Positions 1 to 20,106 of a stretch of DNA of 32,000 bases are shown piece after piece. The notes beneath the pieces were generated by a model. That model made no database searches. It was not told the DNA's origin and saw nothing but the letters and a program-made list of their open reading frames with translations. Numbering within the stretch: the stretch's first letter is position 1; each line of letters opens with the position of its first letter. Where the stretch lies: the NCBI RefSeq assembly GCF_000012805.1, contig NC_007484.1:1170001-1202000 (forward strand), written 5' to 3'. The translations under genes and the position numbers were made by a program. The DNA comes from Nitrosococcus oceani ATCC 19707. GTDB taxonomy: Bacteria; Pseudomonadota; Gammaproteobacteria; Nitrosococcales; Nitrosococcaceae.

Positions 1-2565
1 CTCGATCCCGACCACGGAACCGCTTATGCCCTGCAAGCCATCATCGCCCTGGCGCAGAACCGAAAAGAGGACGCCCTTCGGTTGGCCCGGCAGGGGGCTA
101 AGCTCGATCCCCAGTCCTCCATTCCTCAAATCGCCCTGTCCTATGTTTATCAGGGAAGGTTTAATATCGAGCAAGCGTTACAACATGCCCAGCAGGCTAC
201 CGAGCTTTTCCCTGGCGAGGCCCTTGCCTGGGCGAGGGTAGCGGAATTACAACTCTCCCTGGGTGATTTGGATGGAGCCGCCAAAGCCGCCCAACAGGCG
301 GTAGCCCTCGACCCGGATTTAGCTCGGACCCAAACCGTGCGGGGCTTTGCCGAGTTGACGGCCATTGATATTGAGGAAGCCAAAGCGAGTTTTCAGCGGG
401 CCATTGAACTGGACCCCGCCGATCCCCTCTCCCGCCTTGGGTTGGGACTGGCCAAAATCCGCCAGGGGGATCTCAAGGCAGGCACTGAGGAAATCGAAAT
501 TGCCGCCAGCCTGGACCCCAATAATTCGCTGATTAGAAGTTATCTCGGCAAAGCCTATTACGACCAGAAACGGGGAGAGGCGGCCGCAACGGAGCTGGCG
601 ATAGCCAAGGAACTCGATCCTAACGATCCCACCCCCTGGTTCTACGACGCCATTCGCAAGCAAACGACGAATAGGCCGGTGGAAGCCTTGCATGACATGC
701 AAAAGGCCATTGAACTGAATGATAACCGGGCGGTGTACCGCTCGCGATTACTTATGGACCAAGATCTGGCCGCAAGAAGTGCGAGTCTCGGACGCATTTA
801 CAACGATTTGGGCTTTCAGCAACGGGGCCTATTGGAGGGATGGAAATCGGTTAACACTGATCCCAGCAACTACTCCGCCCATCGGCTATTGGCGGACAAC
901 TATGCGGCATTACCAAGGCATGAAATTGCCAGGGTAAGTGAGTTATTGCAATCCCAACTTTTGCAACCGCTTAACCTCACGCCCGTGCAGCCAAGCTTGG
1001 CAGAAAGTAATCTGCTTCTTTTAGAAGGTGCCGGTCCTTCAGGGCTTGCGTTTAATGAGTTTAACCCATTGTTCACGCGCAATCGCCTAGCCTTGCAGGC
1101 ATCCGGTGTTTTTGGCAGCAATGATACCTTGGGTGATGAGGTGACTCAGTCGGGGCTGTGGAAAAATTTCTCTTATAGTGTGGGACAGTTTCATTCTGAA
1201 ACGGACGGATTTCGGGAAAATAGCGACTTTGCGCGAAACACTTATAATGTATTTACTCAAGGGGCTTTATCTCCTAATACAAACTTGCAAGCGGAATTTA
1301 GACATGATGAGCGCATACAAGGAGATTTAGCTCTTAGATTTGATCCAAATTTTTCCAAAGTTCTTCGCGAAACCAGTCGTGTCAACACATACAGATTAGG
1401 AGCGCGGCATGCTTTTTCGCCTAACTCGCAGATTATAGCTTCATTAAGTTATCAAAACGTTAATGTTAAGCAAAAAACACAAACCCAAAGAACCATTTCC
1501 ATTCCTACCCCACTTGGCCCGTTAGAAACAGAAATTCTGATTCCTACAGAAGCTACGATTAATAGAAATGGATTTATAGGCGAATTACAACATTTCTATA
1601 CTAATGAAAAAGCCACGGTAATTTCTGGTTTCGGTCATATTAACAATGATGTTATTCAAAATGTCACTTTTCCTGAGAATAAACCGCCTTTGACTGAAGT
1701 TATTACCCACCCAGATATAAGAAAAGTTAACATTTATAATTATTCTCAGATCCGTGCTTTTGATAAGTTAACTGCAATACTGGGGTTAAGCATAGATTCT
1801 TTGGAAATAAGAGGTCAACTCGATAAAACTCAAGTGAACCCAAAATTCGGTCTAATTTGGATGCTGCATTCTTCAACGACTCTTCGGCTGGCAGGGTTTA
1901 GAAGCATGAGTACCACAAGAACTGCTAATCAGACTATTGAGCAGACACAGGTTGCTGGTTTTAATCAATTTTTCGATGATGTAAATGGGACCGATGCTTG
2001 GCGTTACGGGGCTGCGGTTGATCATGTTTTTTCTAAATATTTTTATGGAGGAGTTGAGTATTCAGAACGAAAATTAGATGTTCCGGTACTTATCTCCCAA
2101 GGTTCAAAGGCGCAATTCGTTAATTGGAAAGAAAAGACATCACGAACCTATTTTTATCTAACGCCAAATTCTAATTTTGCGGCAAGTATCGAATATTTTT
2201 TTGAGCGTTTTGACCGGCGCTCTAATCCGTTACGGACTGGAATTGTTGATGTGGCAACACATCGGGTTCCAGTAGGCTTAAGTTTTTTTCATCCTTTAGG
2301 TTTTTCGGCTAACCTCAAGGCCACCTATGTTAATCAATCCGGATTTTTCCAAAGACGTAATTCGGATGATATATTTAATGATCAGAGCGGGTTTATCGTT
2401 GTTGATATGAGCTTGAACTATAGATTGCCGAAAAGATTTGGAATTATTAGAGTAGGCTCAAAAAATTTATTTAATGAGAGATTTAAATATCAAGACATGG
2501 ATCCAAATATGCCATTGTTTTTTCCGGAGCGATTTTTGTACACACAATTGACTTTGGCATTCTAA
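1..2565 (+). CDS. TPR-repeat protein fused to a C-terminal outer-membrane beta-barrel (5' end outside window)
   Basis: Frame 1 is open from nt 1 (LDPDHGTAYALQAIIALAQNRKEDALRLARQG...), so the TTG at 82 in the track is internal. The first ~350 aa are tandem TPR-like units (AVALDPDLARTQTVRGFAELTAIDIEEAKASFQRAIELDPADP; SLDPNNSLIRSYLGKAYY; AKELDPNDPTPWFYDA). The last ~480 aa are Y/F/N/G-rich with alternating strand-like patterns and end in ...YTQLTLAF, a terminal aromatic typical of OMP beta-signals. Confidence 0.7.
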   Translation, partial: LDPDHGTAYALQAIIALAQNRKEDALRLARQGAKLDPQSSIPQIALSYVYQGRFNIEQALQHAQQATELFPGEALAWARVAELQLSLGDLDGAAKAAQQAVALDPDLARTQTVRGFAELTAIDIEEAKASFQRAIELDPADPLSRLGLGLAKIRQGDLKAGTEEIEIAASLDPNNSLIRSYLGKAYYDQKRGEAAATELAIAKELDPNDPTPWFYDAIRKQTTNRPVEALHDMQKAIELNDNRAVYRSRLLMDQDLAARSASLGRIYNDLGFQQRGLLEGWKSVNTDPSNYSAHRLLADNYAALPRHEIARVSELLQSQLLQPLNLTPVQPSLAESNLLLLEGAGPSGLAFNEFNPLFTRNRLALQASGVFGSNDTLGDEVTQSGLWKNFSYSVGQFHSETDGFRENSDFARNTYNVFTQGALSPNTNLQAEFRHDERIQGDLALRFDPNFSKVLRETSRVNTYRLGARHAFSPNSQIIASLSYQNVNVKQKTQTQRTISIPTPLGPLETEILIPTEATINRNGFIGELQHFYTNEKATVISGFGHINNDVIQNVTFPENKPPLTEVITHPDIRKVNIYNYSQIRAFDKLTAILGLSIDSLEIRGQLDKTQVNPKFGLIWMLHSSTTLRLAGFRSMSTTRTANQTIEQTQVAGFNQFFDDVNGTDAWRYGAAVDHVFSKYFYGGVEYSERKLDVPVLISQGSKAQFVNWKEKTSRTYFYLTPNSNFAASIEYFFERFDRRSNPLRTGIVDVATHRVPVGLSFFHPLGFSANLKATYVNQSGFFQRRNSDDIFNDQSGFIVVDMSLNYRLPKRFGIIRVGSKNLFNERFKYQDMDPNMPLFFPERFLYTQLTLAF

Positions 2566-2610
2566 AATACAGATCGTACTGAGCGGTTCATAGAAAGGAA
2601 AAAGGTAGCC

Positions 2611-3015
2611 ATGAAAGAAACTTTATCTAATTTCTTGAGAGAGAAACCCCTGGTCGCCGGACTTTTATTATTGCTCGTTATATTTTTATTTACCTTAGCG
2701 AGGTGCAATGATACCCCAACGATTGAAATAAACCCAGATGGCTCTGTAAAAAATGCGGTGGTGAATATTACCTTTACGGTAGATGGTGAGTTTATAATCA
2801 CTACACCCGATGGTAAAATTGTGCCTCCAACCGCTAACCCCTTTCCTGTTAAGGTTAGTACAGTGAGGGTATTGAAAAGTTTATCGATCATGGAAACAAG
2901 TGGCAGCCCGGTGCAGGTATGGATCGATCTCGATAACCAGATCACATGTATTGAGGTTGATTATGATGAGAGTACTCGCCAAGTAACCCGTATTATTGGA
3001 CCATGTAACTTATAG
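2611..3015 (+). CDS. small exported or membrane-anchored protein, unknown function
   Basis: A purine-rich RBS (gaaaggaaaaagg) lies just upstream of the ATG. The N-terminal hydrophobic segment PLVAGLLLLLVIFLFTLARC is followed by a polar beta-rich body. No family recognised. Confidence 0.5.
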   Translation: MKETLSNFLREKPLVAGLLLLLVIFLFTLARCNDTPTIEINPDGSVKNAVVNITFTVDGEFIITTPDGKIVPPTANPFPVKVSTVRVLKSLSIMETSGSPVQVWIDLDNQITCIEVDYDESTRQVTRIIGPCNL

Positions 3016-9120: not shown

Positions 9121-9999
9121 GGCGTGTCATCGGTTAAGCCAGATAACGATGGCTGCGAGGTGGATGCCGCCGAGGAAAGCGCATGCGCGTTTATCGTATC
9201 TGGTGGTGATGGCGCGGTATTGTTTGAGTTTAGCAAAGAGGTTTTCGATGAGATGGCGCCATTTATATATTTTCTCATCATATTCGCGCTGCCTGGTACG
9301 GTTTGATTTAGGTGGAATAACAGCTTCTATATCGGCTCCACCCAGCACGTCCAGCACACGTTCAGCGGCATCATAGGCTTTATCTGCCAAAAATTGTTTC
9401 ACCTTGTTTAAAATGTCCGGCAACAGGGCATCAGCGCCTTGCAGATCATGGGCCTGTCCAGGGGTCAGATGAAAGCCTGTGGGATTGCCCAGCGCATCGC
9501 ATGTTGCATGAATTTTTGTCGTTAATCCGCCTTTTGAGCGCCCGATGTATTCGGCTGTCCGCTCCCCCCCCTTTTTGCACCGGCACTGTGTTGGTGCGCC
9601 CGCACGATTGTGCTGTCTATGGCGGCATATTCACTATCGGCCTCGCTGGCCAGATGTGCGAAAACCCTTCGCCATACGCCACGTCTACTCCCACCCATGT
9701 GCCGTGTGTGAATAACCCGGAAATCGCCAACGCGCTCCGGCAAATCACGCCATGCAATACCTGCACAGTAGCGCTATAAAACCGCCTCCACAAACAAACG
9801 GTTGTCTTGAGCGGTTCCCCCAACGTGAGCTTCCCGGCCCGGCACAAATCCCCTGATCCGCTCCCCTTGATCATCACGGCAGCGCATAACCTCTTTTCGC
9901 CATTCATTAAGCCCCTCCTATGGCCTATTAATATTGAATCATAATCTCATCATAATTGTGAATCCAGAAAATGATTGTGCCAGTAGCTGATGACACACC
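9121..9999 (-). mobile_element. IS5-family insertion sequence (879 bp) with 4-bp CTAG target duplication
   Basis: The terminal inverted repeats are GGCGTGTCATC (9121-9131) and the reverse complement of 9989-9999, GGTGTGTCATC (10/11 match). CTAG sits directly outside both ends (9117-9120 and 10000-10003). The size and YTAR-type target fit small IS5-family members. Confidence 0.8.
9127..9887 (-). pseudogene. IS5-family DDE transposase, interrupted
   Basis: Minus-strand reading gives MRCRDDQGERIRGFVPGREAHVGGTAQDNRLFVEAVL*RYCAGIAWRDLPERVGDFRVIHTRH...IDSTIVRAHQHSAGAKRGG, with an in-frame TAG where related proteins have Tyr. After a -1 shift at the A5G8 run (plus strand C8T5 at 9564-9576) it continues ..IGRSKGGLTTKIHATCDALGNPTGFHLTPGQAHDLQGADALLPDILNK...FLADKAYDA...WRHLIENLFAKLKQYRAITTRYDKRA. 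Confidence 0.75.
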
Positions 10000-10118
10000 C
10001 TAGGTAAACATGACGAGGTCCTTTTCCCGTAACAAGGGTAGATAATGCCACAGTTACATACGTCAAAAATTGACTATGATTAATAGTGCAGAAGACTTTT
10101 GGGAAAGGATAGAAAAAA

Positions 10119-11105
10119 ATGCCGACTTCAAAACAGATTGTAGACCGCAGGGGTCGAAAGGCCCGTCATCCGGGGGAAATTCCCACTAAGGGATGGCGTG
10201 ATATTGCCTACCGGATTAAAGATTCTTTGGACGATGATAATATTTCTATCGTTGCAGCGGGGGTTGCTTTCTATGCTTTGCTGGCTATTTTTCCCGCTTT
10301 GGTGGCGATGGTTTCCATCTATGGAATAATAGCTGATCCCGCCGATGTTCAGCGCCAATTCGATGCCCTCAGTGGTATCTTGCCGACAGAAGCACAAGTG
10401 TTATTGAGTGAGCAATTGCGCCGGATTACCTCTCAAGCTTCAACAGCTTTGAGCGTGGGCGTGGGGGTAGGGGTGATTTTGGCCCTTTGGAGTGCCACCC
10501 GAGGCACGAAGGCGTTTATAATTGCTTTGAATATTGTGTATGGTGAAAAGGAAAAGCGCGGTTTTTTAAAATTAAACGCGATTGCCCTAATGCTGACTCT
10601 GGGTGCCATCGTGCTGGCTATTTTAGCCCTGGGCATGATCGTGGTTTTGCCGATTTTGCTTAGTTATCTTGATTTGCCCGAAATTTTTCAGGTCTTAGCC
10701 TCTCTTTTGCCCTGGTTGCTATTAGCGTTCACCTTTATATTGGGCCTGGCGGTGCTTTACCGTTACGGGCCTAGCCGGAGCGAGGCTCGGTGGCGGTGGG
10801 TAAGCTGGGGGGCAGTTGCCGCCACCGTACTTTGGATAGTTGGCTCCGCCTTGTTTTCGTTTTATGTCGCCAATTTCGCTCAATACAACAAAACCTACGG
10901 TTCAGTCGGCGCCCTTATTATTTTGCTCATGTGGTTTTTTGTAACGGCCTACATTATTTTGCTTGCCGCTGAATTCAATGCCGAAATGGAGCACCAAACA
11001 AAGGTTGATACGACTAGAGGGAAGCCTCAGCCGATGGGAGAACGCGGTGCCTACGTGGCCGATACCGTGGGTAAGCCTTACGGCGATGAAACCGGTGCCC
11101 CTTGA
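10119..11105 (+). CDS. YihY/BrkB (virulence factor BrkB / RNase BN-like) family membrane protein
   Basis: The N-terminal KGWRDIAYRIKDSLDDDNISIVAAGVAFYALLAIFPALVAMVSIYG is the family signature. Six predicted TM helices follow, with a hydrophilic tail. Confidence 0.8.
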   Translation: MPTSKQIVDRRGRKARHPGEIPTKGWRDIAYRIKDSLDDDNISIVAAGVAFYALLAIFPALVAMVSIYGIIADPADVQRQFDALSGILPTEAQVLLSEQLRRITSQASTALSVGVGVGVILALWSATRGTKAFIIALNIVYGEKEKRGFLKLNAIALMLTLGAIVLAILALGMIVVLPILLSYLDLPEIFQVLASLLPWLLLAFTFILGLAVLYRYGPSRSEARWRWVSWGAVAATVLWIVGSALFSFYVANFAQYNKTYGSVGALIILLMWFFVTAYIILLAAEFNAEMEHQTKVDTTRGKPQPMGERGAYVADTVGKPYGDETGAP

Positions 11106-11187
11106 AGTGGTTTTTGGCAAATAACCGGCTACCGCTGATAATAAAACGCTGGCCGGTAAAAATCTCTATAGCATACGGAGTAGACTC

Positions 11188-11481
11188 ATGAATACCTATA
11201 TGATTCGTCGCCGGAGCGCATGGAAAACAGCTTCAGAACTGGAGATGGCGGCTGACCGTTCAAAGCGGGTTGGCAATGAAGAAATGCCTGACCGGGTGCG
11301 TTGGATTCGGTCCTATGTCGTTGAAGAGGAGGACGGTCAACTCGGCACGGTATGTATCTACCAGGCTGTTGATACCGGCGCGCTTCGGGAACATGCGGAG
11401 CGCGCTGGTCTGCAAGCGGATGAAATCACCCCTATCGCCCAGACTGTGGTGGTTAGGAAAGATCCAGCAGAGGGGGGATGA
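11188..11481 (+). CDS. DUF4242-like small protein
   Basis: RBS GGAG lies upstream. The pattern MIRR....TASELE.......V..EM...V.WIRSYV.....G....CIYQA.D..ALREHAERAGL.ADEI resembles DUF4242 proteins as I recall them. Confidence 0.5.
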   Translation: MNTYMIRRRSAWKTASELEMAADRSKRVGNEEMPDRVRWIRSYVVEEEDGQLGTVCIYQAVDTGALREHAERAGLQADEITPIAQTVVVRKDPAEGG

Positions 11482-11508
11482 AGTGCCTTAACACATTAGC
11501 ACGGCCCT

Positions 11509-11531
11509 CCAGGGGTGCCCCGTGCCCCTGG
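11509..11531. terminator. hairpin between convergent genes (possible bidirectional terminator)
   Basis: CCAGGGG(11509-11515)-tgccccgtg-CCCCTGG(11525-11531). It is a GC-rich 7-bp stem followed by atattt on the plus strand. Confidence 0.35.
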
Positions 11532-11541
11532 ATATTTAGGC

Positions 11542-11886
11542 TTAGGCTTTTCTTTTCTTTTTTTCTTGTCGGATTCTGGGTAAGAAGCTTAGAAACAAAA
11601 AATAAACGAAGAGAGAGCCCATAATAATATGTAACGGAAGCCAGGGAATCTGTAGCACTTCTAGCGTGGCGTTCGCGTTTCTCAGGTCACCTTCTTTTAT
11701 AAAGGGGGTCAGCGTGACAAAAGCTTTAGTCAAGGCGGTATTCCAGATGCTTAGGCAGGCGTAGGTTATAAATGTAATAACCTGGAGTGAATTAAATAGC
11801 CGCTCGTATTTTTCAGGACGTTGATAGGCAAGATAGGTAATTCCTATAACCGCTATTACTATCGTGAGGTAAAATATTTTATCCAT
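11542..11886 (-). CDS. small integral membrane protein, last gene of the minus-strand cluster
   Basis: Three or four hydrophobic helices and a KKKRKA tail. It overlaps the GT gene stop by 8 nt, implying co-translation. Confidence 0.5.
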   Translation of the reverse strand: MDKIFYLTIVIAVIGITYLAYQRPEKYERLFNSLQVITFITYACLSIWNTALTKAFVTLTPFIKEGDLRNANATLEVLQIPWLPLHIIMGSLFVYFLFLSFLPRIRQEKKKRKA

Positions 11887-12955
11887 AGAATGTCTTAGGT
11901 GGTTCCTGTTTTTTAAAGATTGCCAAAAAATACTGAAATGTTATTTCCCAAGTCGGAAAAAAAGCTCCCACCGGGTTTTTTTGTGCTTGTTGCTTTAAAA
12001 GCAAAAGTTTTTTGGGATGATAAAGTAATTCTGCCAAGGTTGCCGCAAATTTTTTTCTATCCCCTCTTGGAATTAAAAACCCATTTTCTCCCTCTTTAAT
12101 CCACTGCTGGGTTTCCCCTACCTGGTAGGCTAAAACAGGGACACCCATAGCCGCCGCTTCAGCGATAGCCATGCCGTAGGACTCAAAACAGGAAGCTGAA
12201 ACCAATAAGTCAGCCCCACGTAATGAGGGGCCGATGAGTGAGTGGGGGATGCCATGGCATACATGAATCGACTTTTTTAACTCGCTATTTCTTAGTTTTC
12301 TTTTAAAGCGGTGATGAATGTCGGGCTCTCTATGTAAATCGCCAAACAGCCGCCACGTGCCTTTAAAGACGGGGTTTATTTGCTGTAAGTGGGATAAAAT
12401 TTCTAATTGTCCTTTACTACGGCTTAAGGTTCCTAACGTTATCAATCGGGGCCTGGAATCTTTTTTCCAGGGATCGGGCTGAGGCGTACCGGATTCAGTA
12501 AACTCAATCCCTGGCGGGCAATGACGGATAGGCCCCGCGTATAACGACTCGCTTTTTAAATAACTTGCCAAGGTGGGACCAGGGACGATTACTGTATCCG
12601 CTAGGGCGAGTAACGCATGTTCTTTTTTTTGCAAGGTTTTTCGTTCCGCTGAGGAAAGGAAGGGGTCCATGCAAGGCAGAAAGTGGAGCAAGAAATAGAG
12701 ATAAGTCGGGTGATTCCGGCTGCTGAGGGCGCAGCTTAGACGGGCAGGATTGAGGGTGGTTAGGTAAAGGCTGTCCAGGACAATATGGGCTGGCGACGCA
12801 GAGGGTAGGGTTAGAATTTTTTCAGGTACTTGCTGGGAGAGAGCATAAATGCCGGCGCCAGTGCCAGTAGTAGTAAGACCTTTCCGCAGCATTTCGTTGA
12901 CCCGGAACCCTCCTGAAATTTGGGCCTTGGGCGCTGGCGCCAGCAGGTAAATCAT
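11879..12955 (-). CDS. GT-B glycosyltransferase (GT4 / group 1)
   Basis: The C-terminal half carries ADLLVSASCFESYGMAIAEAAAMGVPVLAYQVGETQQWIKEGENGFLI, the E-x7-E donor-binding motif region of group 1 glycosyltransferases. Confidence 0.8.
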   Translation of the reverse strand: MIYLLAPAPKAQISGGFRVNEMLRKGLTTTGTGAGIYALSQQVPEKILTLPSASPAHIVLDSLYLTTLNPARLSCALSSRNHPTYLYFLLHFLPCMDPFLSSAERKTLQKKEHALLALADTVIVPGPTLASYLKSESLYAGPIRHCPPGIEFTESGTPQPDPWKKDSRPRLITLGTLSRSKGQLEILSHLQQINPVFKGTWRLFGDLHREPDIHHRFKRKLRNSELKKSIHVCHGIPHSLIGPSLRGADLLVSASCFESYGMAIAEAAAMGVPVLAYQVGETQQWIKEGENGFLIPRGDRKKFAATLAELLYHPKKLLLLKQQAQKNPVGAFFPTWEITFQYFLAIFKKQEPPKTFYG

Positions 12956-12958
12956 GGC

Positions 12959-13339
12959 TCAAGAGACCGGTCCTTCATAGGAGCCCCAAGCCACGTGGCT
13001 TTCTTCCAAGGTGATTTTGAGCTTTCCCTGGAAGGTGGCGCGGACTCGTTTGGCGAGTTGGCCATGAATATAGTGGGCCAAATATTCGGTTGTGGTATTG
13101 GCGCCACGGAATGACTGTTCTTCATCTAGATTTTTGTAATTAAGCAAGGCGAGGACTGCTTGCAGGGCCTTAAGGGCTAGGCCAATGTCAATCACTATGC
13201 CATCCTGGTCCAGTTTCTCAGTATGAAACTCGGCGATCACATTGTAAGTGGCCCCATGAAGTCCCTGGGCAGGACCAAACACCTCTCCTTGTAGGCTATG
13301 GGCAATCATAAAATGGTCTTTGACGGCAAGGGTATACAT
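12959..13339 (-). CDS. divergent 6-pyruvoyl-tetrahydropterin synthase / QueD-fold protein
   Basis: FMIAHSL......GPAQGLHGATYNV...D.DGIVIDIGL..A..A.L..LNYKNLDE follows the PTPS/QueD (COG0720) layout. Several catalytic positions appear substituted (see findings). Confidence 0.65.
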   Translation of the reverse strand: MYTLAVKDHFMIAHSLQGEVFGPAQGLHGATYNVIAEFHTEKLDQDGIVIDIGLALKALQAVLALLNYKNLDEEQSFRGANTTTEYLAHYIHGQLAKRVRATFQGKLKITLEESHVAWGSYEGPVS

Positions 13340-13344
13340 AACAT

Positions 13345-14376
13345 TTAGGCTTTGTGGAGTCGAGGATGAAAGGGTGGATAGGTCACGGCAAAGGAAAAGT
13401 CGACCGGATTTTTATGGTAGAGTTCCTGCATAAAAAGAGGCAGGCTCTCAAAGGTGATCGCTGGGGCAATAAGAGCATCAAGTAAGGGGCTTTGCAAATA
13501 ATTCAGGGTCTGCTCTAAACGCTGCTGGTGGCTCGTATGTTCCCGCTTGGGTTTGGCAATCGTGCTGACTTGGGAAGAGAGAATCTGTTTCCTTTGGAAG
13601 TGAAAAGATCCGCCCAGGTTAAGGGTGACTGGCTGATGAGCCAACCAGCTCACCTCAATGACTTTTCCTTCAAACCCCACGCTATCCAAGGCTGTTTGCA
13701 GTCCTGCTCCTTGTCCCGAGGCATGAAAACAGAGGGAAAATACCCCCTGGGGGGCCTCCTGGACTTCAAGGACAGTAAGTCCCCATCCTAGTTTTTCAAT
13801 GAGTTGCCGACGCTGCGGATCGCGCTCAATGATAATAGGGAAGGCATCCCAGGCGGTTTTGAGCAAAAAGGCGATAAGCAAGCCCACAATGCCGCCACCG
13901 ACGATGGCTACCGGCGCTGGCGCCTGGTATTCGCTGTCCCAAATGGCGTTCAGGGCGGTTTCCAGGTTAGGAAGCAGCGTAGCCCGTAGAGGGGGTATAT
14001 CCTGAGGGAGGGGTAATAGTTGCTTATTGGGGACAATTGCGTAATCTTGGTGGGGATGCATGGTAAAGACGAGCTGGTCAGCGTAGGGGCCATTAATAGC
14101 CTGGCCTAGGAGGCAATATCCGTATTTGACTGGCAGCTTGAATGATCCCCCCATAGCAGGGCAAGCCATGGCTTGCTGGCATTCCGCGGGTACCTTCCCC
14201 AATCCGACCAATCGCTCTGTCCCAGGGCTGATTCCAGTTAGCCAGGTTTCAAGGAGGCTATAACCCACTGGTACCGGCACAGAGAGCGTTTCCTGGCGAA
14301 TGGCGCCTTTCCCGGACGCTTCCACCCAATAAGCCCGGGCAATAGATGGGACTAAGCGTGGTGGCGGGGTAGACAT
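13345..14376 (-). CDS. MDR-superfamily (zinc-type alcohol dehydrogenase-like) oxidoreductase
   Basis: About 340 aa. The central Rossmann motif is PVAIVGGGIVGLLIAFLLK, with a GroES-like N-terminal half. The ATG at 14376 is the only start in the N-terminal region. Confidence 0.65.
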   Translation of the reverse strand: MSTPPPRLVPSIARAYWVEASGKGAIRQETLSVPVPVGYSLLETWLTGISPGTERLVGLGKVPAECQQAMACPAMGGSFKLPVKYGYCLLGQAINGPYADQLVFTMHPHQDYAIVPNKQLLPLPQDIPPLRATLLPNLETALNAIWDSEYQAPAPVAIVGGGIVGLLIAFLLKTAWDAFPIIIERDPQRRQLIEKLGWGLTVLEVQEAPQGVFSLCFHASGQGAGLQTALDSVGFEGKVIEVSWLAHQPVTLNLGGSFHFQRKQILSSQVSTIAKPKREHTSHQQRLEQTLNYLQSPLLDALIAPAITFESLPLFMQELYHKNPVDFSFAVTYPPFHPRLHKA

Positions 14377-15452
14377 TCCAGCAATATTTCCTTATCAAGG
14401 CAGAAGTGAGTCATATGAAAATAGGTTCCCTCCTGGATACGGGCAACTGGAGGGAGCTGGAAGGAAGGTAAGCCAGAACCCAGCAGAAGCGGTGCAATAT
14501 GGAGGTGAAGCAAATCCGTTTGTCCTCCCGCCAGAAAAAAAGAGAGGGTTTTGCCCCCACCTTCCACGAAGACGGAGCGTATTCCCAGAGACCAAATTGT
14601 TTCTAATACGGCTTTTAAATCCATAAGTTTGCCGTTTTTCTCTCCCGCTTGATTTCTTACTCCCAGGGGGATGACTTTTTCGGGAATGGCATGGTGTGTT
14701 TCTATTTTATTTAGGCTATCTGAATGGAGCAACCAATTATGACCCGGTTCCTGGAAAATTCGGTAGGGCTTTTCTCCAGTCAGTAAATGGCATTGACGGT
14801 CAAGAATTACCCGTTTAGGATTTTCCCCCGGAACCTCGCGTACCGTGAGGCGGGGATTATCTTTTTCTACTGTGCCCCGGCCCACCAACACGGCATCATG
14901 AAGGGCCCGGAGACGATGGGCGTGTTTGCGATCGGCATAGTTACTGATCCACTGGGAGTGACCACTTGCAGCAGCGATTTTACCGTCCAAGGTTTGTGCC
15001 AGGTGAGCACTAATCCATGGTAGGCGTTTTTGGGATGCGATATGATGGCCGGCGAGGCAGGGCAAATAAAGACGAAAAGCGGTGAGCAAATGGCTGGGCA
15101 GCCTGGGGCCGCGGGAATGAATCCAAGGCGAGGCGCCGAGAGATAGCGCTGAAGGATCAAAAGCTAGCAGTGTGGGAATATGGACAATAGCTACCTCGTT
15201 TATATGAGGATAAGGCGGCTTGGGCGTGGAGAAATAAACGATAATAAGCGCTTTGGGCGCGGTTTTTACTATTATGTCCAGACTAGCCGTAAAGCGCCAT
15301 CGAGACGGTTGCTGTTCCGTCTCAAAAGGATAGAAGAAAACATAGGGAACCTCCGGCGCGGTGCTATGGTTTTGGCGCCAACGTTTAAAATCAAGCAGAC
15401 TCTCCCAGATTTGATTAACTGAAGAGTCAAGTATGGCACATTCCATAAGCAC
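14352..15452 (-). CDS. RibD C-terminal (pyrimidine reductase / DHFR-like) domain protein with ~150-aa unknown N-terminal extension
   Basis: PWISAHLAQTLDGKIAAASGHSQWISNYADRKHAHRLRALHDAVLVGRGTVEKDNPRLTVR...RVILD...IRSVFVEGGGKTLSFFLAGGQTDLLHLHIAPLLLGSG is the RibD_C pattern. The first ~150 aa are unrecognised. Confidence 0.75.
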   Translation of the reverse strand: MLMECAILDSSVNQIWESLLDFKRWRQNHSTAPEVPYVFFYPFETEQQPSRWRFTASLDIIVKTAPKALIIVYFSTPKPPYPHINEVAIVHIPTLLAFDPSALSLGASPWIHSRGPRLPSHLLTAFRLYLPCLAGHHIASQKRLPWISAHLAQTLDGKIAAASGHSQWISNYADRKHAHRLRALHDAVLVGRGTVEKDNPRLTVREVPGENPKRVILDRQCHLLTGEKPYRIFQEPGHNWLLHSDSLNKIETHHAIPEKVIPLGVRNQAGEKNGKLMDLKAVLETIWSLGIRSVFVEGGGKTLSFFLAGGQTDLLHLHIAPLLLGSGLPSFQLPPVARIQEGTYFHMTHFCLDKEILLECLPRHHA

Positions 15453-15497
15453 TAAATTGCTCTATTCCTTAACGATTGGCACTGAACGCGAATTTTT

Positions 15498-16238
15498 ATG
15501 GCTGAAGGTTACCACAACCACATTTTCCGGCAACAATACCGCAGGCTCCTGATTTTTCAATCATTAATTTCTGTTTTATTGCTGGCGGCTAGTGCATTTT
15601 ATCTACAAAAGGTTCCCGCTGGCTATGCTTTTGTCATTTCCGTTGCCGTCTTTTGGCTTCTGGGCAGCCACGGTTTCCTGATCTATTTCCTCCGTGCTTG
15701 GCGAACGCCTGCGGATTGGGCGACGCTGCTGCGGTTTTTTTTAGCAATCGCAGGCTTGTTGATAGCCATTTTTGGGGGGGCGCTGCTATGGATTCTGGTC
15801 ATGACGAGCCTGGCTTCCCTGGGCGATTGGCTGGATGGCTGGCTGGCTGACCGCTACGGCGGAACTTCTCAGGGGGCAATCCTGGATGCTGAAACCGATC
15901 AAACGCTGATTTTTATGCTCGCGGTATTAGGGGCTAGCGTGGGAGGTTTGGCCTTGTGGGTGCTTTTATTTCCTGCTTATCGCTATGGGTATATCTTATT
16001 GTTGGAAATTTTTGCGATTCCTGCGGATGATCCGAAGCCCAAGGCCGGAGATAATTTTCGGGGCCGGATTGCCTGTGCGACCATCCAGGTGGCTTTGTTA
16101 GCTAATCTGTTGCCCTCTTTGGCTTTGCCGGTAAAAACTCTATTCAGTGCTTTAGCGCTTGGTTTTCTGACCTATTCTTTCGCTGATGATCTTTTTTATC
16201 AGTTCAAGGCGCGCTTTGCCTCTTTTCTTCGTTTCTAG
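15498..16238 (+). CDS. CDP-alcohol phosphatidyltransferase family membrane protein
   Basis: GDWLDGWLADRYGGTSQGAILDAETDQ matches D-x2-D-G-x2-A-(R)-x7-8-G-x3-D-x3-D, except that Asp replaces the usual Arg, with Arg one position later. Six hydrophobic helices. Confidence 0.75.
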   Translation: MAEGYHNHIFRQQYRRLLIFQSLISVLLLAASAFYLQKVPAGYAFVISVAVFWLLGSHGFLIYFLRAWRTPADWATLLRFFLAIAGLLIAIFGGALLWILVMTSLASLGDWLDGWLADRYGGTSQGAILDAETDQTLIFMLAVLGASVGGLALWVLLFPAYRYGYILLLEIFAIPADDPKPKAGDNFRGRIACATIQVALLANLLPSLALPVKTLFSALALGFLTYSFADDLFYQFKARFASFLRF

Positions 16239-16257
16239 AAGGTTTGATGTCAGGATC

Positions 16258-16920
16258 ATGTCTGCTTTCGAGCTAATTATATTAGGTGCTTATGGGTTAA
16301 TGGTGGTTGAATTAGTTTTTTTGCCAGTGCCCAGTGAAGCTTCCACTTACCAACTGTTAGCCTCCAAGCCCCAGGGGCAATGCCTTTCAGGGGGGCTGCG
16401 TCAGGCCCATCAGGCTTCGTTAGGGCGCAAGTTATTGATTTTTTTATTGCCTACGGGGCTGATTCTAATTGCTTTTTTGCTCCCCTTGGGACAAATATTT
16501 TTCCCCCAGCTAAAGAATTATTTATGGCCTATCTCTATTTTTGAAATTCCTTTATTTCGGTGGGTAGCGATAGGCTTGATTATTTCAGGATCGGTTTTCA
16601 CTTTGATAAGCGTACTGGAAATGCGTGGGGGGATGACTAAAAATCCTTTCAGAAAAATAGGATCGGAGTTACAGTTTCAAGGACCATTCCGATGGTCCCG
16701 CAATCCAGGCTTAGTGGGGAATTACGGACTATTTCTTGGACTATTCTTTTATTTCCCTAGCCTGGTGATGGCTTTGGGCATGGGGGTTTATCTTTTGAGT
16801 ATGCATCATCGTATTTTGCTAGAGGAAAGTCAGTTAGAGGTTCGGTTTGGTGAGACTTACCGTGCTTATCAGCGCCGCGTGCCCCGCTATTTAGGTTTTC
16901 GCCAGTCGGTAATTAAATGA
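16258..16920 (+). CDS. ICMT/PEMT-like membrane methyltransferase
   Basis: The C-terminal GPFRWSRNPGLVGNYGLFLGLFF......HHRILLEESQLEVRFGETYRAYQRRVPRYL is the isoprenylcysteine carboxyl / phospholipid methyltransferase signature. I prefer ATG 16258 over ATG 16186, which overlaps the upstream gene. Confidence 0.7.
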   Translation: MSAFELIILGAYGLMVVELVFLPVPSEASTYQLLASKPQGQCLSGGLRQAHQASLGRKLLIFLLPTGLILIAFLLPLGQIFFPQLKNYLWPISIFEIPLFRWVAIGLIISGSVFTLISVLEMRGGMTKNPFRKIGSELQFQGPFRWSRNPGLVGNYGLFLGLFFYFPSLVMALGMGVYLLSMHHRILLEESQLEVRFGETYRAYQRRVPRYLGFRQSVIK

Positions 16921-17028
16921 TTGATAAGGTTTTTTGTGATTGGGTGCAGCCATAGGCGGGCTGAAGTGGTTTTTGCTAAGATAAATCCTTTCTTTTACAT
17001 AATCAGAATAAAAAAATTGGAAAATTTT

Positions 17029-17598
17029 ATGTTACGTTTTGCTGGGACGGTGATGATATCTTGGTTGTTCCTGGGGGGGCTTGCCGAAGCTGGGGAGCCT
17101 GGCAATGGAAAAGAAGGCACTAATGAACGGGTTATCATGGGATGGGTGGAGCCAGTGGTTCTCATTCCTTGGGGTGTTGAACTTAAGGCAAAGCTAGACT
17201 CCGGCGCTAAAACCTCATCATTGCATGCTGAAGATATTGAGCGGTTTAAGAAAGATGGCGAGGAATGGGTGCGCTTTGTGATTGATATAGAAAGAAAGGC
17301 GAAAAAGATAAAACAGCTCCACGTAGAACAGCCATTAGCCCGTGATGTGCATATAAAGCGGCATCGGGGCAGCGCAAAAAAACGGCCTGTAGTTAGTTTG
17401 GAATTTTGTTTAAACGGTAAACGCCATAAGGCTCAGTTTAGTTTAGTTGACCGTAGCCAGTTAAATTACCCAGTACTTTTGGGCCGCCGTTTTCTGAAAA
17501 AGGCGGCCCTTATTGATTCCGGTAAAATCTTCCTTACGAGGGAAGGATGGAAGACTTGCTTGGTAGAATATGCTGCCGGCGAAGCTCCTAAAAGTTAA
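17029..17598 (+). CDS. retropepsin-like aspartic peptidase (family annotated 'putative ATP-dependent zinc protease', COG4067)
   Basis: Signal peptide MLRFAGTVMISWLFLGGLAEA. IMGWVEPVVLIPWGVELKAKLDSGAKTSSLHA contains the D-S-G aspartic protease motif. The C-terminal part reads NYPVLLGRRFLKKAALIDSGKIFL. Confidence 0.75.
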   Translation: MLRFAGTVMISWLFLGGLAEAGEPGNGKEGTNERVIMGWVEPVVLIPWGVELKAKLDSGAKTSSLHAEDIERFKKDGEEWVRFVIDIERKAKKIKQLHVEQPLARDVHIKRHRGSAKKRPVVSLEFCLNGKRHKAQFSLVDRSQLNYPVLLGRRFLKKAALIDSGKIFLTREGWKTCLVEYAAGEAPKS

Positions 17599-17635
17599 GT
17601 TCTTGCGCTAGGCTCAGCAGTTTGGAAAATAAAAT

Positions 17636-19174
17636 TTGAAGAATCTCCATATTAAGATCCTTGCCTTTCTCCTTGTGATGATCGGCTTAGGCTTGGCTTA
17701 TTATAAGGTGACGCGGCTTGGTTTGCCGGTATTGCCAGCCGAGCAAACCGAAGTTTGGATGGTAGAGGCCCGCCTCGCCTTTGAAGCTAAAGGCGGTCCG
17801 GTGAAGGCGCGCTTCTATATTCCAAACGCTCCCCCCGGTTTTACTGTTGTGGGAGAAGACTTCATCTCTAGTAAATATGGTTTAACCATGGATGAGGGGG
17901 ACATTAATCGTACCGCCCAATGGGCGGTACGCCGGGCCGAGGGGAAGCAGGTGTTGTACTACCGGATTGAATTGGCACCTGAGATTGCCCATATAAAACC
18001 ACAGAAGGGGAATATCCCCCCCTTTCCGGCCGCCCCCGATTATCCTGAGCCCATGGGCTCGGTGGTGCAGGCGTTATTAGAAGAGGTGCGCCGTAAATCA
18101 GCTGACGTAGCTTCCTTTTCCGGGGAACTCCTGGCCCGCCTCAATGCTTCTAATCCTACTGAAAATGTTCAGATTTTGCGCAAAGGCATTGAAAGTGCGC
18201 ACGCCTGGGTAAAACAAGTGATTTATATTTTGGCCGGCGCCCGGATTCCTGCCCGTATGGTTTATATCTTGCCATTAAAAGGCGATGTGAGTCATAGTAA
18301 GTTGCTTCCTTGGCTAGAAGTCCATAATGGACGGGAATGGCTAGCTTTTAACCCTAAAACGGGAAGCCGGGGATTCCCTGCGAACGCATTGATTTGGCAT
18401 GTGGGCGATGAGCCCTTGCTCGAGCTGGAGGGAGGCGAATCACCTAAGGTGGAATACTCTGTCTCGAGTCGTTTTCAAGAATTGGTTTTGGTCGCGGAGC
18501 AGCGAGCGCGGCAAATTAACTCTCTGATAATGGATTTTTCCCTATTTAGCCTCCCCGTGCAGACCCAGAATGTCTACCGGGTGTTACTGTTAATTCCTAT
18601 TGGGACTTTTTTGATTGTCGTGCTGCGAAACGTTATTGGCATTAAAACGTTTGGTACATTTATGCCTATTTTGATAGCCCTGGCATTCCGAGAAACCGAT
18701 CTTTTGTGGGGAGTCGCGATGTTCACTGGGATCGTGGCTGTTGGTTTGATACTGCGTTTTTATTTGGAATACCTTAAACTGCTGCTAGTGCCACGCCTAG
18801 CCTCGGTGCTGGTGATGGTGATTCTTTTAATGGCGGTTATCAGTGTGCTGACTCATAAAATGGGGCTAGAACGGGGCCTGTCTGTGGCCCTCTTCCCGAT
18901 GGTGATTTTGACCATGACCATTGAGCGCATGTCCCTGGTTTGGGAGGAGCATGGCCCTGGAGAAGCGCTGCAACAAGGGCTTGGAAGCTTGCTGGTGGCT
19001 ATATTGGGTTATTTATTAATGGCCAATAAGCTATTGGAGCATCTGGTTTTTGTTTTTCCTGAATTGTTGTTGGTGGTGTTAGCCATGACCTTGTTGTTGG
19101 GCCGTTATACGGGCTATCGGTTAACGGAGATTTGGCGTTTCAAGGAGTTTTTGCGGAAAACGGAACTTCCATGA
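17636..19174 (+). CDS. inactive transglutaminase-like domain fused to a 7-TM module
   Basis: One N-terminal TM helix is followed by a periplasmic part with a transglutaminase-like core, AGARIPARMVY...LPWLEVHNGREWLAFNPKTG. The expected Cys/His/Asp positions look substituted. About seven hydrophobic helices span aa ~310-500. The start is TTG 17636 (alternative ATG 17678). Confidence 0.7.
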   Translation: MKNLHIKILAFLLVMIGLGLAYYKVTRLGLPVLPAEQTEVWMVEARLAFEAKGGPVKARFYIPNAPPGFTVVGEDFISSKYGLTMDEGDINRTAQWAVRRAEGKQVLYYRIELAPEIAHIKPQKGNIPPFPAAPDYPEPMGSVVQALLEEVRRKSADVASFSGELLARLNASNPTENVQILRKGIESAHAWVKQVIYILAGARIPARMVYILPLKGDVSHSKLLPWLEVHNGREWLAFNPKTGSRGFPANALIWHVGDEPLLELEGGESPKVEYSVSSRFQELVLVAEQRARQINSLIMDFSLFSLPVQTQNVYRVLLLIPIGTFLIVVLRNVIGIKTFGTFMPILIALAFRETDLLWGVAMFTGIVAVGLILRFYLEYLKLLLVPRLASVLVMVILLMAVISVLTHKMGLERGLSVALFPMVILTMTIERMSLVWEEHGPGEALQQGLGSLLVAILGYLLMANKLLEHLVFVFPELLLVVLAMTLLLGRYTGYRLTEIWRFKEFLRKTELP

Positions 19175-20106
19175 TCTTTCCTTGGCGGCGTTTACGGCAG
19201 CTGGGGGTTCTAGGCATGAACCAACGCAATGCCGACTATATTTTGCCCTTTAATCCGCGGCATCATTATCCGTTAGTGGATGATAAAAGACGCACTAAAC
19301 AATTGGCTTTAGCGGCGGGGATTGCCGTGCCCAAACTTTATGGCGTCGTGGAAATGGTTCACCAAATTAAACGCCTGGATAAGCTGCTCGGCCCCCATGA
19401 AGATTTTGTTATCAAGCCCGCCCATGGCAGCGGCGGAGAAGGTATTCTGGTGGTTAACGGGCGCTATCAAGGGCGTTATCGTAAGGCGAGCGGGGTTATC
19501 CTGACCGCAGAAGAAATCGGCCACCATATCGCCAATATTCTGAGTGGCATGTATAGCCTGGGAGGATTGCCCGATACCGCGCTTATCGAATACCGGGTCA
19601 AGTTTGATCCCCTGTTTGAGGCTGTTAGCTATTTAGGAGTCCCGGATATCCGTACCCTGGTTTATCGAGGGATACCCGCCTTGGCGATGATACGGTTACC
19701 CACGCGCCTTTCGGATGGCAGGGCCAATTTACACCAAGGGGCTATTGGCGTGGGTATTGATTTGGTGACTGGCCGGACTAGTGCTGGCGTATGGCAAGAA
19801 CATGCCATTGACCGTCATCCTGATACGGAGGGGGAGATACGCAATTTAAGGATACCCCACTGGGAGAGCGTTCTTGAGTTAGCTGCCCGCTGCTTTGATT
19901 TAGTGAATTTGGGTTATATTGGAGTTGATATTGTGTTAGATCGGGATTTGGGCCCCATGGTTCTGGAGCTTAATGCCCGTCCTGGTCTTAGTATTCAACT
20001 GGCCAATAAGGTGGGGCTGCAGCCCCGCCTCCAGCGCATTCAAAGGCTGAGTGAAATTCCCTCCTCCGCCGCTGAACGGGTGGCATTAGGAAAATCTTTG
20101 GCATAA
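19171..20106 (+). CDS. RimK-related ATP-grasp (alpha-L-glutamate ligase-like) protein
   Basis: MIFPWRRLRQLGVLGMNQRNADYILPFNPRHHYPLVDDKRRTKQLALAAGIAVPKLYG...DFVIKPAHGSGGEGILVV...VLELNARPGLSIQ matches the alpha-L-glutamate ligase-related family. The ATG overlaps the upstream stop (ATGA at 19171-19174). Confidence 0.8.
   Translation: MIFPWRRLRQLGVLGMNQRNADYILPFNPRHHYPLVDDKRRTKQLALAAGIAVPKLYGVVEMVHQIKRLDKLLGPHEDFVIKPAHGSGGEGILVVNGRYQGRYRKASGVILTAEEIGHHIANILSGMYSLGGLPDTALIEYRVKFDPLFEAVSYLGVPDIRTLVYRGIPALAMIRLPTRLSDGRANLHQGAIGVGIDLVTGRTSAGVWQEHAIDRHPDTEGEIRNLRIPHWESVLELAARCFDLVNLGYIGVDIVLDRDLGPMVLELNARPGLSIQLANKVGLQPRLQRIQRLSEIPSSAAERVALGKSLA

Follow-up and report, generated by a model that had tools for sequence, protein, structure and literature searches.

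A widespread uncharacterized bacterial gene cluster centered on PTPS-IV and its possible role in linking a GTP-derived pterin-like glycoside to membrane lipids

Introduction

The gene cluster analyzed here lies in a 32,000-nucleotide stretch of the Nitrosococcus oceani ATCC 19707 genome (NC_007484.1, positions 1,170,001 to 1,202,000; hereafter the window, to which coordinates without a locus label refer). It codes for a RibD_C pyrimidine-reductase-like protein, an MDR-superfamily dehydrogenase, a T-fold protein of the PTPS-IV subfamily, a family 4 glycosyltransferase (GT4), a CDP-alcohol phosphatidyltransferase-family membrane protein (CDP-OH) and a PEMT/ICMT-family membrane methyltransferase. 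We propose, with a probability that we would put at roughly 0.45, that the locus, reduced to six genes, represents a widespread, uncharacterized cluster built around PTPS-IV, and that the product of this cluster is a ribityl-pyrimidine or pterin-like glycoside that originates from GTP and becomes attached to a lipid or to the cell envelope.

The nearest described counterpart is the SCO6650–SCO6655 cluster of Streptomyces coelicolor: the PTPS-like protein of the window matches SCO6650 (PDB 3D7J), with which it shares the FGPAQ motif and the lack of a catalytic Cys. Spoonamore et al. reportedly found in 2008 that SCO6650 does not bind zinc, is inactive as a PTPS and retains a pocket of the pterin type. 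The PTPS-IV and SCO6650–6655 genes have counted as a recognized orphan group since about 2006–2012, and the literature that we found to bear on the cluster consists of two papers on PTPS-IV neighborhoods and a 2026 review of riboflavin, which mentions the S. coelicolor paralog of GTP cyclohydrolase II (GCHII). FGPAQ has been described as the signature of PTPS-IV (PMC5445326, citing Zallot 2016 and Phillips 2012), whose gene neighborhoods contain PF00925 (GCHII) and PF01872 (RibD_C) (PMC5445326); PMC5041015 is likewise among the published accounts of this link. As far as we found it, the SCO6650-type literature mentions neither the CDP-alcohol transferase, GT4 and MDR partners nor the product. 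The original prediction, made from the letters of the window, had called the cluster an orphan: this stands in that it is uncharacterized, but it is widespread rather than unique, and the connection of PTPS-IV to GCHII and RibD_C was already in print. What is new relative to that literature is the constancy of the MDR and GT4 partners, a dedicated CDP-OH subfamily with methyltransferase fusions and the accompanying envelope transferases; together these additions provide a testable product-class hypothesis for a widespread cluster.

Other described systems parallel parts of the cluster. The tetrahydrobiopterin-glucoside route (GTP cyclohydrolase I, PTPS, sepiapterin reductase and the pteridine glycosyltransferases BGluT/PGT, described in PMC5683033 and PMC4133829) similarly combines four kinds of enzyme: a cyclohydrolase, a protein with the T-fold, an oxidoreductase that depends on NAD(P) and a glycosyltransferase of the GT-B type, some 350 aa long. 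In contrast to that route, the cyclohydrolase of the cluster is of type II rather than type I, a ribosyl reductase is interposed, the dehydrogenase is an MDR and not an SDR protein, the T-fold protein is devoid of the machinery for PTPS catalysis, the GT4 has no specific relationship to BGluT, and membrane lipid enzymes are attached. The archaeal and fungal steps of riboflavin synthesis (GCHII or ArfA/ArfB, then Rib7/MjaRED) recall the cluster in the kinship of its RibD_C protein, in the lack of an active deaminase partner and, in its actinobacterial version, in the combination of a creatininase-family (ArfB-type) gene with a Met-switch GCHII. The pairing of a CDP-alcohol phosphatidyltransferase with a GT4 is known from PIP synthase and PimA, and the OpgB/LtaS/EptA head-group transferases find a likeness in the envelope head-group machinery of larger versions of the cluster, namely transmembrane (TM) sulfatase-family, MdoH-like or LPG-synthase-TM proteins. 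These last resemblances are mechanistic analogies only, as there is no sequence-level orthology and the scores fall far under the curated cut-offs; moreover, the acceptor of the CDP-OH would be a GTP-derived compound and not inositol or glycerol, as in PIP synthase and its kin. Finally, in Chlamydia the GCHII product is turned into a pterin by an Amadori-type step involving RibA and TrpF, a bypass leading to dihydroneopterin phosphate once the side chain has a 2′-carbonyl (PMC4161248). There the carbonyl comes from Amadori rearrangement of the ribosylamine, whereas here it would come from reduction followed by re-oxidation by the dehydrogenase.

Conservation of the cluster across bacteria

A scan with a reductase profile over one genome per species returned 68 loci, which were then searched by tblastn with the seven proteins that the original prediction had placed in the cluster, that is, the above six and a 114-aa open reading frame (ORF) discussed below; loci were thus ascertained by RibD_C or, for those reached otherwise, PTPS similarity. 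The core of four genes (RibD_C, MDR, PTPS and GT4) was found in about 60 of the loci retrieved, which belong to six phyla or more, with representatives in the Planctomycetota (including the anammox Brocadiaceae), Nostocales, Pseudomonadota, Verrucomicrobiota, Bacteroidota and Actinomycetota. In 50 of the 60 loci that hold MDR, PTPS and GT4, the four core genes keep the same order, with the GT4 after the PTPS-IV gene and the last three colinear within 2.5 kb. The MDR gene, which was found in 68 of 73 clustered loci and in every locus group compared, always lies directly upstream of that for PTPS-IV. Hence, the arrangement is conserved well beyond this genome and is no chance juxtaposition within it; its recurrence in order across phyla supports the proposal that they make up a functional unit. 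Two further Nitrosococcus genomes, those of N. wardiae and N. halophilus, were reached separately, the species-wide scan having returned no Nitrosococcus, and they display the same six genes in the same layout.

The cluster is patchy in its distribution and often plasmid-borne. Annotated plasmids searched with the PTPS-like protein yielded 21 records, six of which were inspected; five of these carry the MDR–PTPS–GT4 trio (Streptomyces fungicidicus, Methylosinus trichosporium OB3b, Thiodictyon, Neorhizobium and Microbacterium), and the same trio is found on a gammaproteobacterial metagenome contig recovered via a PTPS-IV homolog. The S. fungicidicus plasmid comes close to the window: its CDP-OH gene is divergent from genes for a Zn-ADH-like protein, PTPS, GT4 and a methyltransferase, and creatininase-family and GCHII genes are also present. 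The set is otherwise the same, save that no RibD gene is listed in a 1-kb gap of the PLSDB gene table, which is incomplete. Compared with this Streptomyces version, the window has no GCHII, no creatininase-family gene and no class I methyltransferase, and adds the PEMT/ICMT-like methyltransferase and the N-terminal extension of the reductase.

Larger, planctomycete-type clusters (L001–L072, e.g., L071 3756–8546; also L076 at ~14648) additionally encode two class I (CMAS-like) methyltransferases and a 500–590 aa protein combining an N-terminal membrane domain with a sulfatase-family domain (Pfam Sulfatase, 26.5 bits). The latter, present in 35 loci, resembles LtaS/OpgB/EptA in its architecture. 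Some of these clusters also encode a polytopic membrane protein of ~550–800 aa with no Pfam match. In the Methylosinus trichosporium OB3b and Neorhizobium plasmids (L075 6079–7881 and L078 5098–7011), an MdoH-like GT2 glucan synthase lies beside MDR–PTPS–GT4 and no CDP-OH is found in either stretch, and the Microbacterium cluster couples a CDP-OH to an LPG-synthase-TM protein. The recurring theme is a set of soluble enzymes joined to a membrane-embedded transferase, and where the CDP-OH is absent another such transferase, like the MdoH-like GT2 of Methylosinus and Neorhizobium, can take its place.

The PTPS-IV protein and the core enzymes

Pfam and NCBIfam profile scans bore out each of the domain identities proposed for the cluster. 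None of the proteins reaches any NCBIfam equivalog cut-off, and the set consequently does not match those of riboflavin, folate, queuosine or H4MPT synthesis, as the original prediction had maintained.

The PTPS-like protein (Pfam PTPS, 1.8e-24) matches SCO6650 across residues 1–123 with an E-value of 2.3e-38, the next PDB match being at 2.8e-4, and bears FGPAQ at residues 21–25, a motif present in 110 of its 120 closest homologs. Its sequence thus places it in PTPS-IV, an orphan subfamily of COG0720. This family is large, with at least 7,999 clusters at 90% identity (E<=1e-10; 7,999 of 8,000 candidates scored), and in RefSeq plasmid records its genes are annotated as QueD; however, the protein of the window attains 38 bits against a cut-off of 89 for the QueD equivalog and does not fit the canonical PTPS-I, -II or -III definitions, which call for a catalytic Cys (CxxxHGH or CxxxxxHGH) or Glu (ExxHGH) and a zinc site of three His. 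In an alignment with rat PTPS (1b66), Cys42 is replaced by Ala24, His50 by Ala30 and Asp88-His89 by Asn67-Tyr68, with His48 kept as His28; the protein therefore has neither a catalytic Cys nor an Asp-His pair, and its third zinc ligand is missing as well. Conversely, H14, H28, T83-T84-E85 and E113 are invariant in 121 sequences, and Thr83-Thr84-Glu85 and Glu113 align with the pterin-anchoring residues of PTPS. The notion that this fold acts on a pterin therefore describes a predicted binding site rather than a known activity. The RibD_C gene lies two genes upstream in the same operon-like run, with the MDR gene in between. As a separate observation, a Streptomyces anthocyanicus plasmid (L077 8001–8426) is exceptional in that its PTPS-IV homolog is accompanied by MEKHLA- and cupin-domain genes, with no MDR, GT4 or RibD_C.

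The reductase, which shares 99% identity with a ‘RibD family protein’ of N. oceani, features a RibD_C domain at residues 145–336 (Pfam, 2e-37). Judging from the homologs, which start at its Met3, the true start is probably the ATG at 15446. The domain has the RibD_C fold with its NADPH site, the EGGG at 297–300 being invariant among family members, and aligns best with the archaeal and fungal 2,5-diamino-pyrimidinone reductases MthRED, MjaRED and Rib7. Consistently, in a Foldseek search the C-terminal domain of the AF2 model (pLDDT 80.8) matched the archaeal and fungal DARPP reductases 6p8c, 2azn and 5xux with a TMt of 0.70–0.79. Nevertheless, the protein falls short of the relevant NCBIfam cut-offs (TIGR00227, 132.5 against 150 bits; TIGR00326, 119 against 156; TIGR01508, the archaeal reductase, 93 against 186). 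His150, invariant in 20 family members, occupies the position of Asn in the archaeal reductases and of Lys151 in Bacillus subtilis RibG, which we take to be the substrate-discriminating residue. Further differences from the archaeal reductases are the extra N-terminal domain and downstream enzymes that are not those of riboflavin synthesis. This N-terminal domain (aa 1–141, ~140 aa) has no match in Pfam, is specific to the family and lacks the deaminase zinc motifs (HxE, PCxxC) that would mark a bifunctional RibD. Modeled alone (pLDDT 85), it gave no significant match in the PDB, with weak deaminase- or JAMM-like matches at TM ~0.3 and E>=0.18; full-length RibD structures top the fold search with the whole reductase but are aligned only at a root-mean-square deviation of ~9 Å. 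These models leave a degenerate deaminase domain as one possible identity of the N-terminal region.

The MDR protein matches ADH_zinc_N at 25.9 bits (1e-5), below the cut-off of 31.8, and TIGR01202 (BchC) at 5e-11. Given its Rossmann motif, GGGIVG at 160–165, it is an NAD(P)-binding protein of the BchC-like type; it does not qualify as a zinc-dependent alcohol dehydrogenase, as its ADH_zinc_N score is too low and it displays GISPGTE at 48–54, with Ser where the GxCxxD/E motif has the catalytic-zinc Cys, even though RefSeq plasmid records label its homologs ‘zinc-binding alcohol dehydrogenase’. The GT4 is a clear member of its family (Glycos_transf_1, 67.5 bits against a cut-off of 26.4, 1.4e-18; Glyco_trans_1_4, 2.8e-19), with ESYGMAIAE at 258–266 as its EX7E motif and 6kih as its best PDB sequence match (5e-9). 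A match to PF20706 (‘GT4-conflict’) raised the possibility of an anti-phage defense or conflict system, which we rejected, none of the seven proteins matching a PADLOC model.

GTP cyclohydrolase II and the entry from GTP

In 44 related loci GCHII is encoded within 10 kb of the cluster or fused to one of its members: in the Nostocales it is fused N-terminally to the RibD_C reductase, and in planctomycetes its gene comes after that for the GT4. The most likely starting point of the pathway is therefore GTP. There is no GCHII anywhere in the 32-kb window, and that of N. oceani must hence be encoded elsewhere.

At the position of Tyr105 of Escherichia coli RibA (a reference sequence validated by matches of 44–57% identity), Tyr is found in 41 cluster-linked GCHIIs. 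The sole Met is in the S. fungicidicus plasmid p1 enzyme (L074 12645–14138), whose gene stands back-to-back with one of the creatininase family, to which the archaeal formamidopyrimidine deformylase ArfB belongs. Spoonamore et al. are said to have found in 2006 that SCO6655, with Met120, makes the formylated product FAPy. The coupling of a Met-type GCHII with a creatininase-family gene is consistent with an actinomycete route that passes through a formylated intermediate, followed by its deformylation.

The CDP-alcohol transferase and its methyltransferase partner

The CDP-OH protein (Pfam PF01066 CDP-OH_P_transf, 46.5 bits against a cut-off of 22, 6.7e-12) has several hydrophobic segments and retains all four Asp residues of the family signature, D-x2-D-G-x2-A-R...G-x3-D-x3-D; its own sequence reads D110-x2-D113-G-x2-A-D-R...G-x3-D130-x3-D134, in which the Arg of ‘DGxxAR’ is shifted or replaced. 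Among the NCBIfam models PgsA matches it best, with 30.6 bits where 109 would be required, and PIP synthase and others score lower; by these equivalogs it is not an ortholog of PgsA, PIP synthase, Pcs, PssA or ClsA. A word-index search produced 11 close relatives, and we used instead an exhaustive search over 1.84 billion representatives, which found 506 relatives at E<=1e-3. So small a number identifies a specialized clade rather than a general phospholipid synthase.

Five lineages show a CDP-OH linked to the core, namely Planctomycetota, Verrucomicrobiota, Pseudomonadota, Actinomycetota and Nitrosococcus, in the following configurations: It is divergent from the core in 26 planctomycete-type loci, Nitrosococcus, S. 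fungicidicus and a gammaproteobacterial metagenome-assembled genome (MAG), with its start 0.7–1.1 kb from the core in the planctomycete-type loci and in N. wardiae and N. halophilus. An upstream, co-directional CDP-OH gene occurs in Microbacterium and in MAGs of Pseudomonadota and Verrucomicrobiota, and in Thiodictyon the gene is downstream of the core. CDP-OH proteins from all of these settings are related to one another (pairwise E-values of 3e-4 to 1e-43). Moreover, two members are fused to an FkbM methyltransferase (P0329, on a JGI 3300072015 contig, and L082 132–2368), the fused domain sharing 40% identity with the FkbM methyltransferase that occurs in the Nostocales cluster; one of the two genes comes after a GT4 gene, with a 4-nt overlap, and the other precedes a PEMT-like gene.

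The PEMT-like protein (PF04191, 34.6 bits against a cut-off of 25, 2.7e-8) has weak NCBIfam matches to LmtA (5.5e-5; 23 against a cut-off of 325) and MddA (3e-3; 16.8 against 270). Its gene probably starts at 16258 (Met25), which would leave a +19 nt gap to the CDP-OH gene instead of a 53-nt overlap. In the 33 planctomycete-type loci, CDP-OH accompanies the core in 29 and PEMT in 28, and the two are paired in 3/3 Verrucomicrobiota loci, 5/9 other Pseudomonadota loci and L082. Thus, the CDP-alcohol transferase and the methyltransferase belong to the cluster system.

A proposed pathway and its alternatives

The gene families, their conservation and linkage, the loss of catalytic residues in the PTPS-like protein, the GCHII fusions and linkage and the CDP-OH/methyltransferase fusions are all observed; from them we infer the following reactions, of which each chemical step past GCHII, the sequence of the steps and the lipid nature of the product are predictions. 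GCHII, encoded in N. oceani outside the window, would convert GTP to 2,5-diamino-6-ribosylamino-4(3H)-pyrimidinone 5′-phosphate, whose ribosyl group the RibD_C protein would reduce to ribityl; that this happens without prior deamination is suggested by the absence of a deaminase motif and by the His in place of the Lys of the bacterial 2-oxo-specific enzymes. The BchC-like MDR protein could then oxidize a secondary alcohol of the side chain, and the metal-less PTPS-IV protein could bind the 2-amino-4-oxo-pyrimidine moiety and promote its ring closure or rearrangement to a pterin-like compound. The GT4 would add a sugar, after which methyltransferases would act in most lineages, and the dedicated CDP-alcohol phosphatidyltransferase would couple the product to lipid via a phosphodiester; alternatively, a polyol-phosphate intermediate might serve as its acceptor, as with the PIP and PGP synthases. 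The PEMT/ICMT-like enzyme would methylate the membrane-bound product, and in the larger clusters the membrane-anchored sulfatase-family (LtaS/OpgB/EptA-like) protein might pass the phospho-head group to an envelope acceptor. The link to the membrane is supported by the joining of CDP-OH to the core in three arrangements, by the tiny and distinct subfamily that it forms and by the FkbM fusions. After the neighborhood analysis, a glycosylated, possibly lipid-anchored or phospho-linked product of pyrimidine or pterin type, as first suggested, is still the best reading of the cluster.

Several points weigh against this pathway. The window lacks not only GCHII but also the class I and FkbM methyltransferases of other clusters, and the N-terminal domain of the reductase has no assignable fold. 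The co-occurrence frequencies are conditional on RibD_C or PTPS, through which the loci were ascertained. In the literature we found no characterized pathway, and no paper on the gene combination, the SCO6650–6655 product or Noc_1076–1081. One published account has PTPS-IV ‘involved in F420 synthesis’ in archaea, citing unpublished work (PMC5041015). Furthermore, the membrane arm may be decaying in Nitrosococcus: N. oceani has Asp in place of the signature Arg of the CDP-OH motif, the next residue being Arg, and N. wardiae has Thr, whereas the homologs of Planctomycetota, Streptomyces, Thiodictyon and Microbacterium read ‘ARR’ there. In N. wardiae the PEMT-like gene is also cut to 124 aa (L080 8816–9190) with the rest of the cluster intact, which suggests that the enzyme is dispensable in this genus. 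To our knowledge, experiments on members of these families are limited to the SCO6655 and SCO6650 results.

The Nostocales bear most directly on the membrane link. They carry the GCHII–RibD_C fusion, MDR, PTPS-IV, GT4 and methyltransferases, and none of their 24 clusters has CDP-OH or PEMT within 10 kb. Lipid coupling would therefore be an option rather than a universal feature, and a soluble glycoside may be the end product in these cyanobacteria. An extension of this idea to the cluster as a whole, in which its only product is a soluble pterin or ribityl-pyrimidine glycoside like biopterin glucoside or cyanopterin and the CDP-OH and PEMT-like genes are ordinary phospholipid neighbors, is in our judgment unlikely. 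It would accommodate the degenerate Arg and the truncated PEMT-like gene of Nitrosococcus, and the enzyme types of the cluster do parallel those of the tetrahydrobiopterin-glucoside route (cyclohydrolase, T-fold enzyme, dehydrogenase and glycosyltransferase). The GT4 also matches the tetrahydrobiopterin glucosyltransferase 9v0l, but weakly (E 2.4e-5) and at rank sixth after unrelated GT4 enzymes; the match is confined to the generic C-terminal GT-B domain (168–301), which rules out the GT4 as an ortholog of the pteridine glycosyltransferases BGluT/PGT. Ordinary phospholipid genes, moreover, are hard to reconcile with a CDP-OH that is co-localized with the core in five lineages despite rearrangements, belongs to a subfamily of just 506 representatives far under every housekeeping equivalog cut-off and is fused to a cluster-type FkbM methyltransferase beside GT4 or PEMT-like genes.

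The membrane arm could instead come first: the CDP-OH would make a polyol-phosphate lipid which the GT4 glycosylates in the manner of PimA, with RibD_C, MDR and PTPS-IV supplying a polyol head group, such as a ribityl derivative, that has no pterin ring. We regard this glycolipid as quite improbable. The weak NCBIfam matches of the CDP-OH are indeed to enzymes with polyol-phosphate acceptors (PgsA, 4e-7; archaetidylinositol-P synthase, 9e-5; PIP synthase, 6e-4), those of the GT4 include the inositol-phosphate transferase MshA (NCBIfam) and PDB 7qsg, and the product of RibD_C would be a ribityl 5′-phosphate compound. However, MDR–PTPS–GT4 is the most tightly coupled trio of the cluster and persists without CDP-OH in the Nostocales and Rhizobiales, and the retention in PTPS-IV of the residues aligned with those anchoring the pterin or pyrimidine argues that the heterocycle is kept and processed. 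Finally, a role in cofactor supply, as a paralogous offshoot of the riboflavin, F420 (deazaflavin) or folate pathway, is very improbable, and we reject membership in the riboflavin, queuosine, folate or F420 pathways: the F420 assignment just cited, the standing of RibD_C and GCHII as riboflavin/FO precursor enzymes and the RefSeq annotations ‘RibD family’, ‘6-carboxytetrahydropterin synthase’ and QueD are outweighed by scores short of the RibD, archaeal reductase and QueD equivalog cut-offs, by a PTPS-IV devoid of the Cys and complete zinc site of QueD/PTPS chemistry, by the absence of CofG/H, CofD, CofE, RibE/H, FolB/K/P and QueC/E from the annotated neighborhoods, by the patchy and often plasmid-borne distribution, and by a GT4, CDP-OH and PEMT that have no role in those pathways.

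Returning to the lipid- or envelope-coupled glycoside, a more specific form of this proposal appears to us possible rather than probable: the cluster would make a new class of membrane lipid or envelope decoration, whose head group is a glycosylated, mostly methylated, GTP-derived pterin or ribityl-diaminopyrimidine installed by the dedicated CDP-alcohol phosphatidyltransferase. If true, this would connect purine/pterin metabolism directly with the chemistry of phospholipid head groups, and the decoration would occur in nitrifiers, anammox bacteria and other planctomycetes, verrucomicrobia, purple sulfur bacteria and actinomycetes. Should the broader hypothesis on the product class be right, a lipid head group or envelope modification made from GTP would be new for bacteria of environmental importance, such as ammonia oxidizers, anammox bacteria, lichen Nostoc and Streptomyces, and annotations as ‘QueD’ or ‘RibD’ would need correction by the thousand.

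Gene layout and flanking regions

The features of the locus are collected in Table 1. The ORF map reproduces all seven ORFs of the original prediction, their spacings and the 45-bp divergent gap; from the reductase to the 114-aa ORF, the minus-strand junctions are −25, +5, +3 and −8 nt.

Table 1. Genes and intergenic region of the N. oceani locus, in window coordinates
Feature	Coordinates	Strand	Basis
RibD_C pyrimidine-reductase-like protein	14352..15452	-	ORF map, Pfam
MDR-superfamily dehydrogenase, BchC-like type	13345..14376	-	ORF map, Pfam/NCBIfam
PTPS-IV subfamily T-fold protein, SCO6650 homolog	12959..13339	-	Pfam, PDB match
GT4 glycosyltransferase (retaining, GT-B)	11879..12955	-	Pfam
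114-aa ORF, two hydrophobic segments	11542..11886	-	no family match; membership doubtful
Divergent intergenic region, 45 bp, between the reductase operon and the CDP-OH/PEMT pair	15453..15497	.	ORF map
CDP-alcohol phosphatidyltransferase-family membrane protein, Noc_1080	15498..16238	+	Pfam; 100% identity to Noc_1080 of ATCC 19707
PEMT/ICMT-family membrane methyltransferase	16186..16920	+	Pfam; probable start 16258

The 45-bp gap presumably holds back-to-back promoters, which are predicted from the layout because a consensus sigma-70 scan found nothing above the shuffled background; the scan for promoters and terminators as a whole stayed within what shuffled sequence gives. The 32-kb window contains no tRNA and, in a gathering-threshold scan, no Rfam element.

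The 114-aa ORF, which overlaps the GT4 stop by 8 nt and had been counted as a small membrane protein of the cluster, has no match in Pfam, NCBIfam or PADLOC, and tblastn detected no homolog of it among ~80 loci, including those of N. wardiae and N. halophilus. The ORF is N. oceani-specific and probably falls outside the cluster. Since it has no homolog even in the congeners, the conserved unit here comprises six genes and not seven. A synteny breakpoint lies directly to the left of the GT4 (window 9127–11886 against L080 13665–17337 and L081 11485–17802). Beyond the GT4, N. wardiae and N. halophilus have a gene for a methyltransferase-like protein of 289–290 aa, from a family also found after the GT4 in Nostocales, Streptomyces, Thiodictyon and others, together with 238-aa and DnaJ-like genes. 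At the breakpoint the window has instead the 114-aa ORF, an SCO4226-like gene, BrkB/YihY and insertion sequence/transposase remnants (9127–9907), and the 290-aa, 238-aa and DnaJ-like genes are absent.

The genes on both flanks are unrelated to the cluster. On the right flank (16921–20106), directly downstream of the PEMT-like gene, there is a triad encoding a Zn_protease (PF05618), a 7TM-transglutaminase and an ATPgrasp_ST protein. As it is syntenic in the three Nitrosococcus genomes and absent from the clusters of other phyla, it is probably an independent module. At the far left of the window, the G+C content drops from 0.56 (1–1000) to 0.39–0.40 (1001–3000) inside a single 827-aa ORF with TPR repeats (82–2565).

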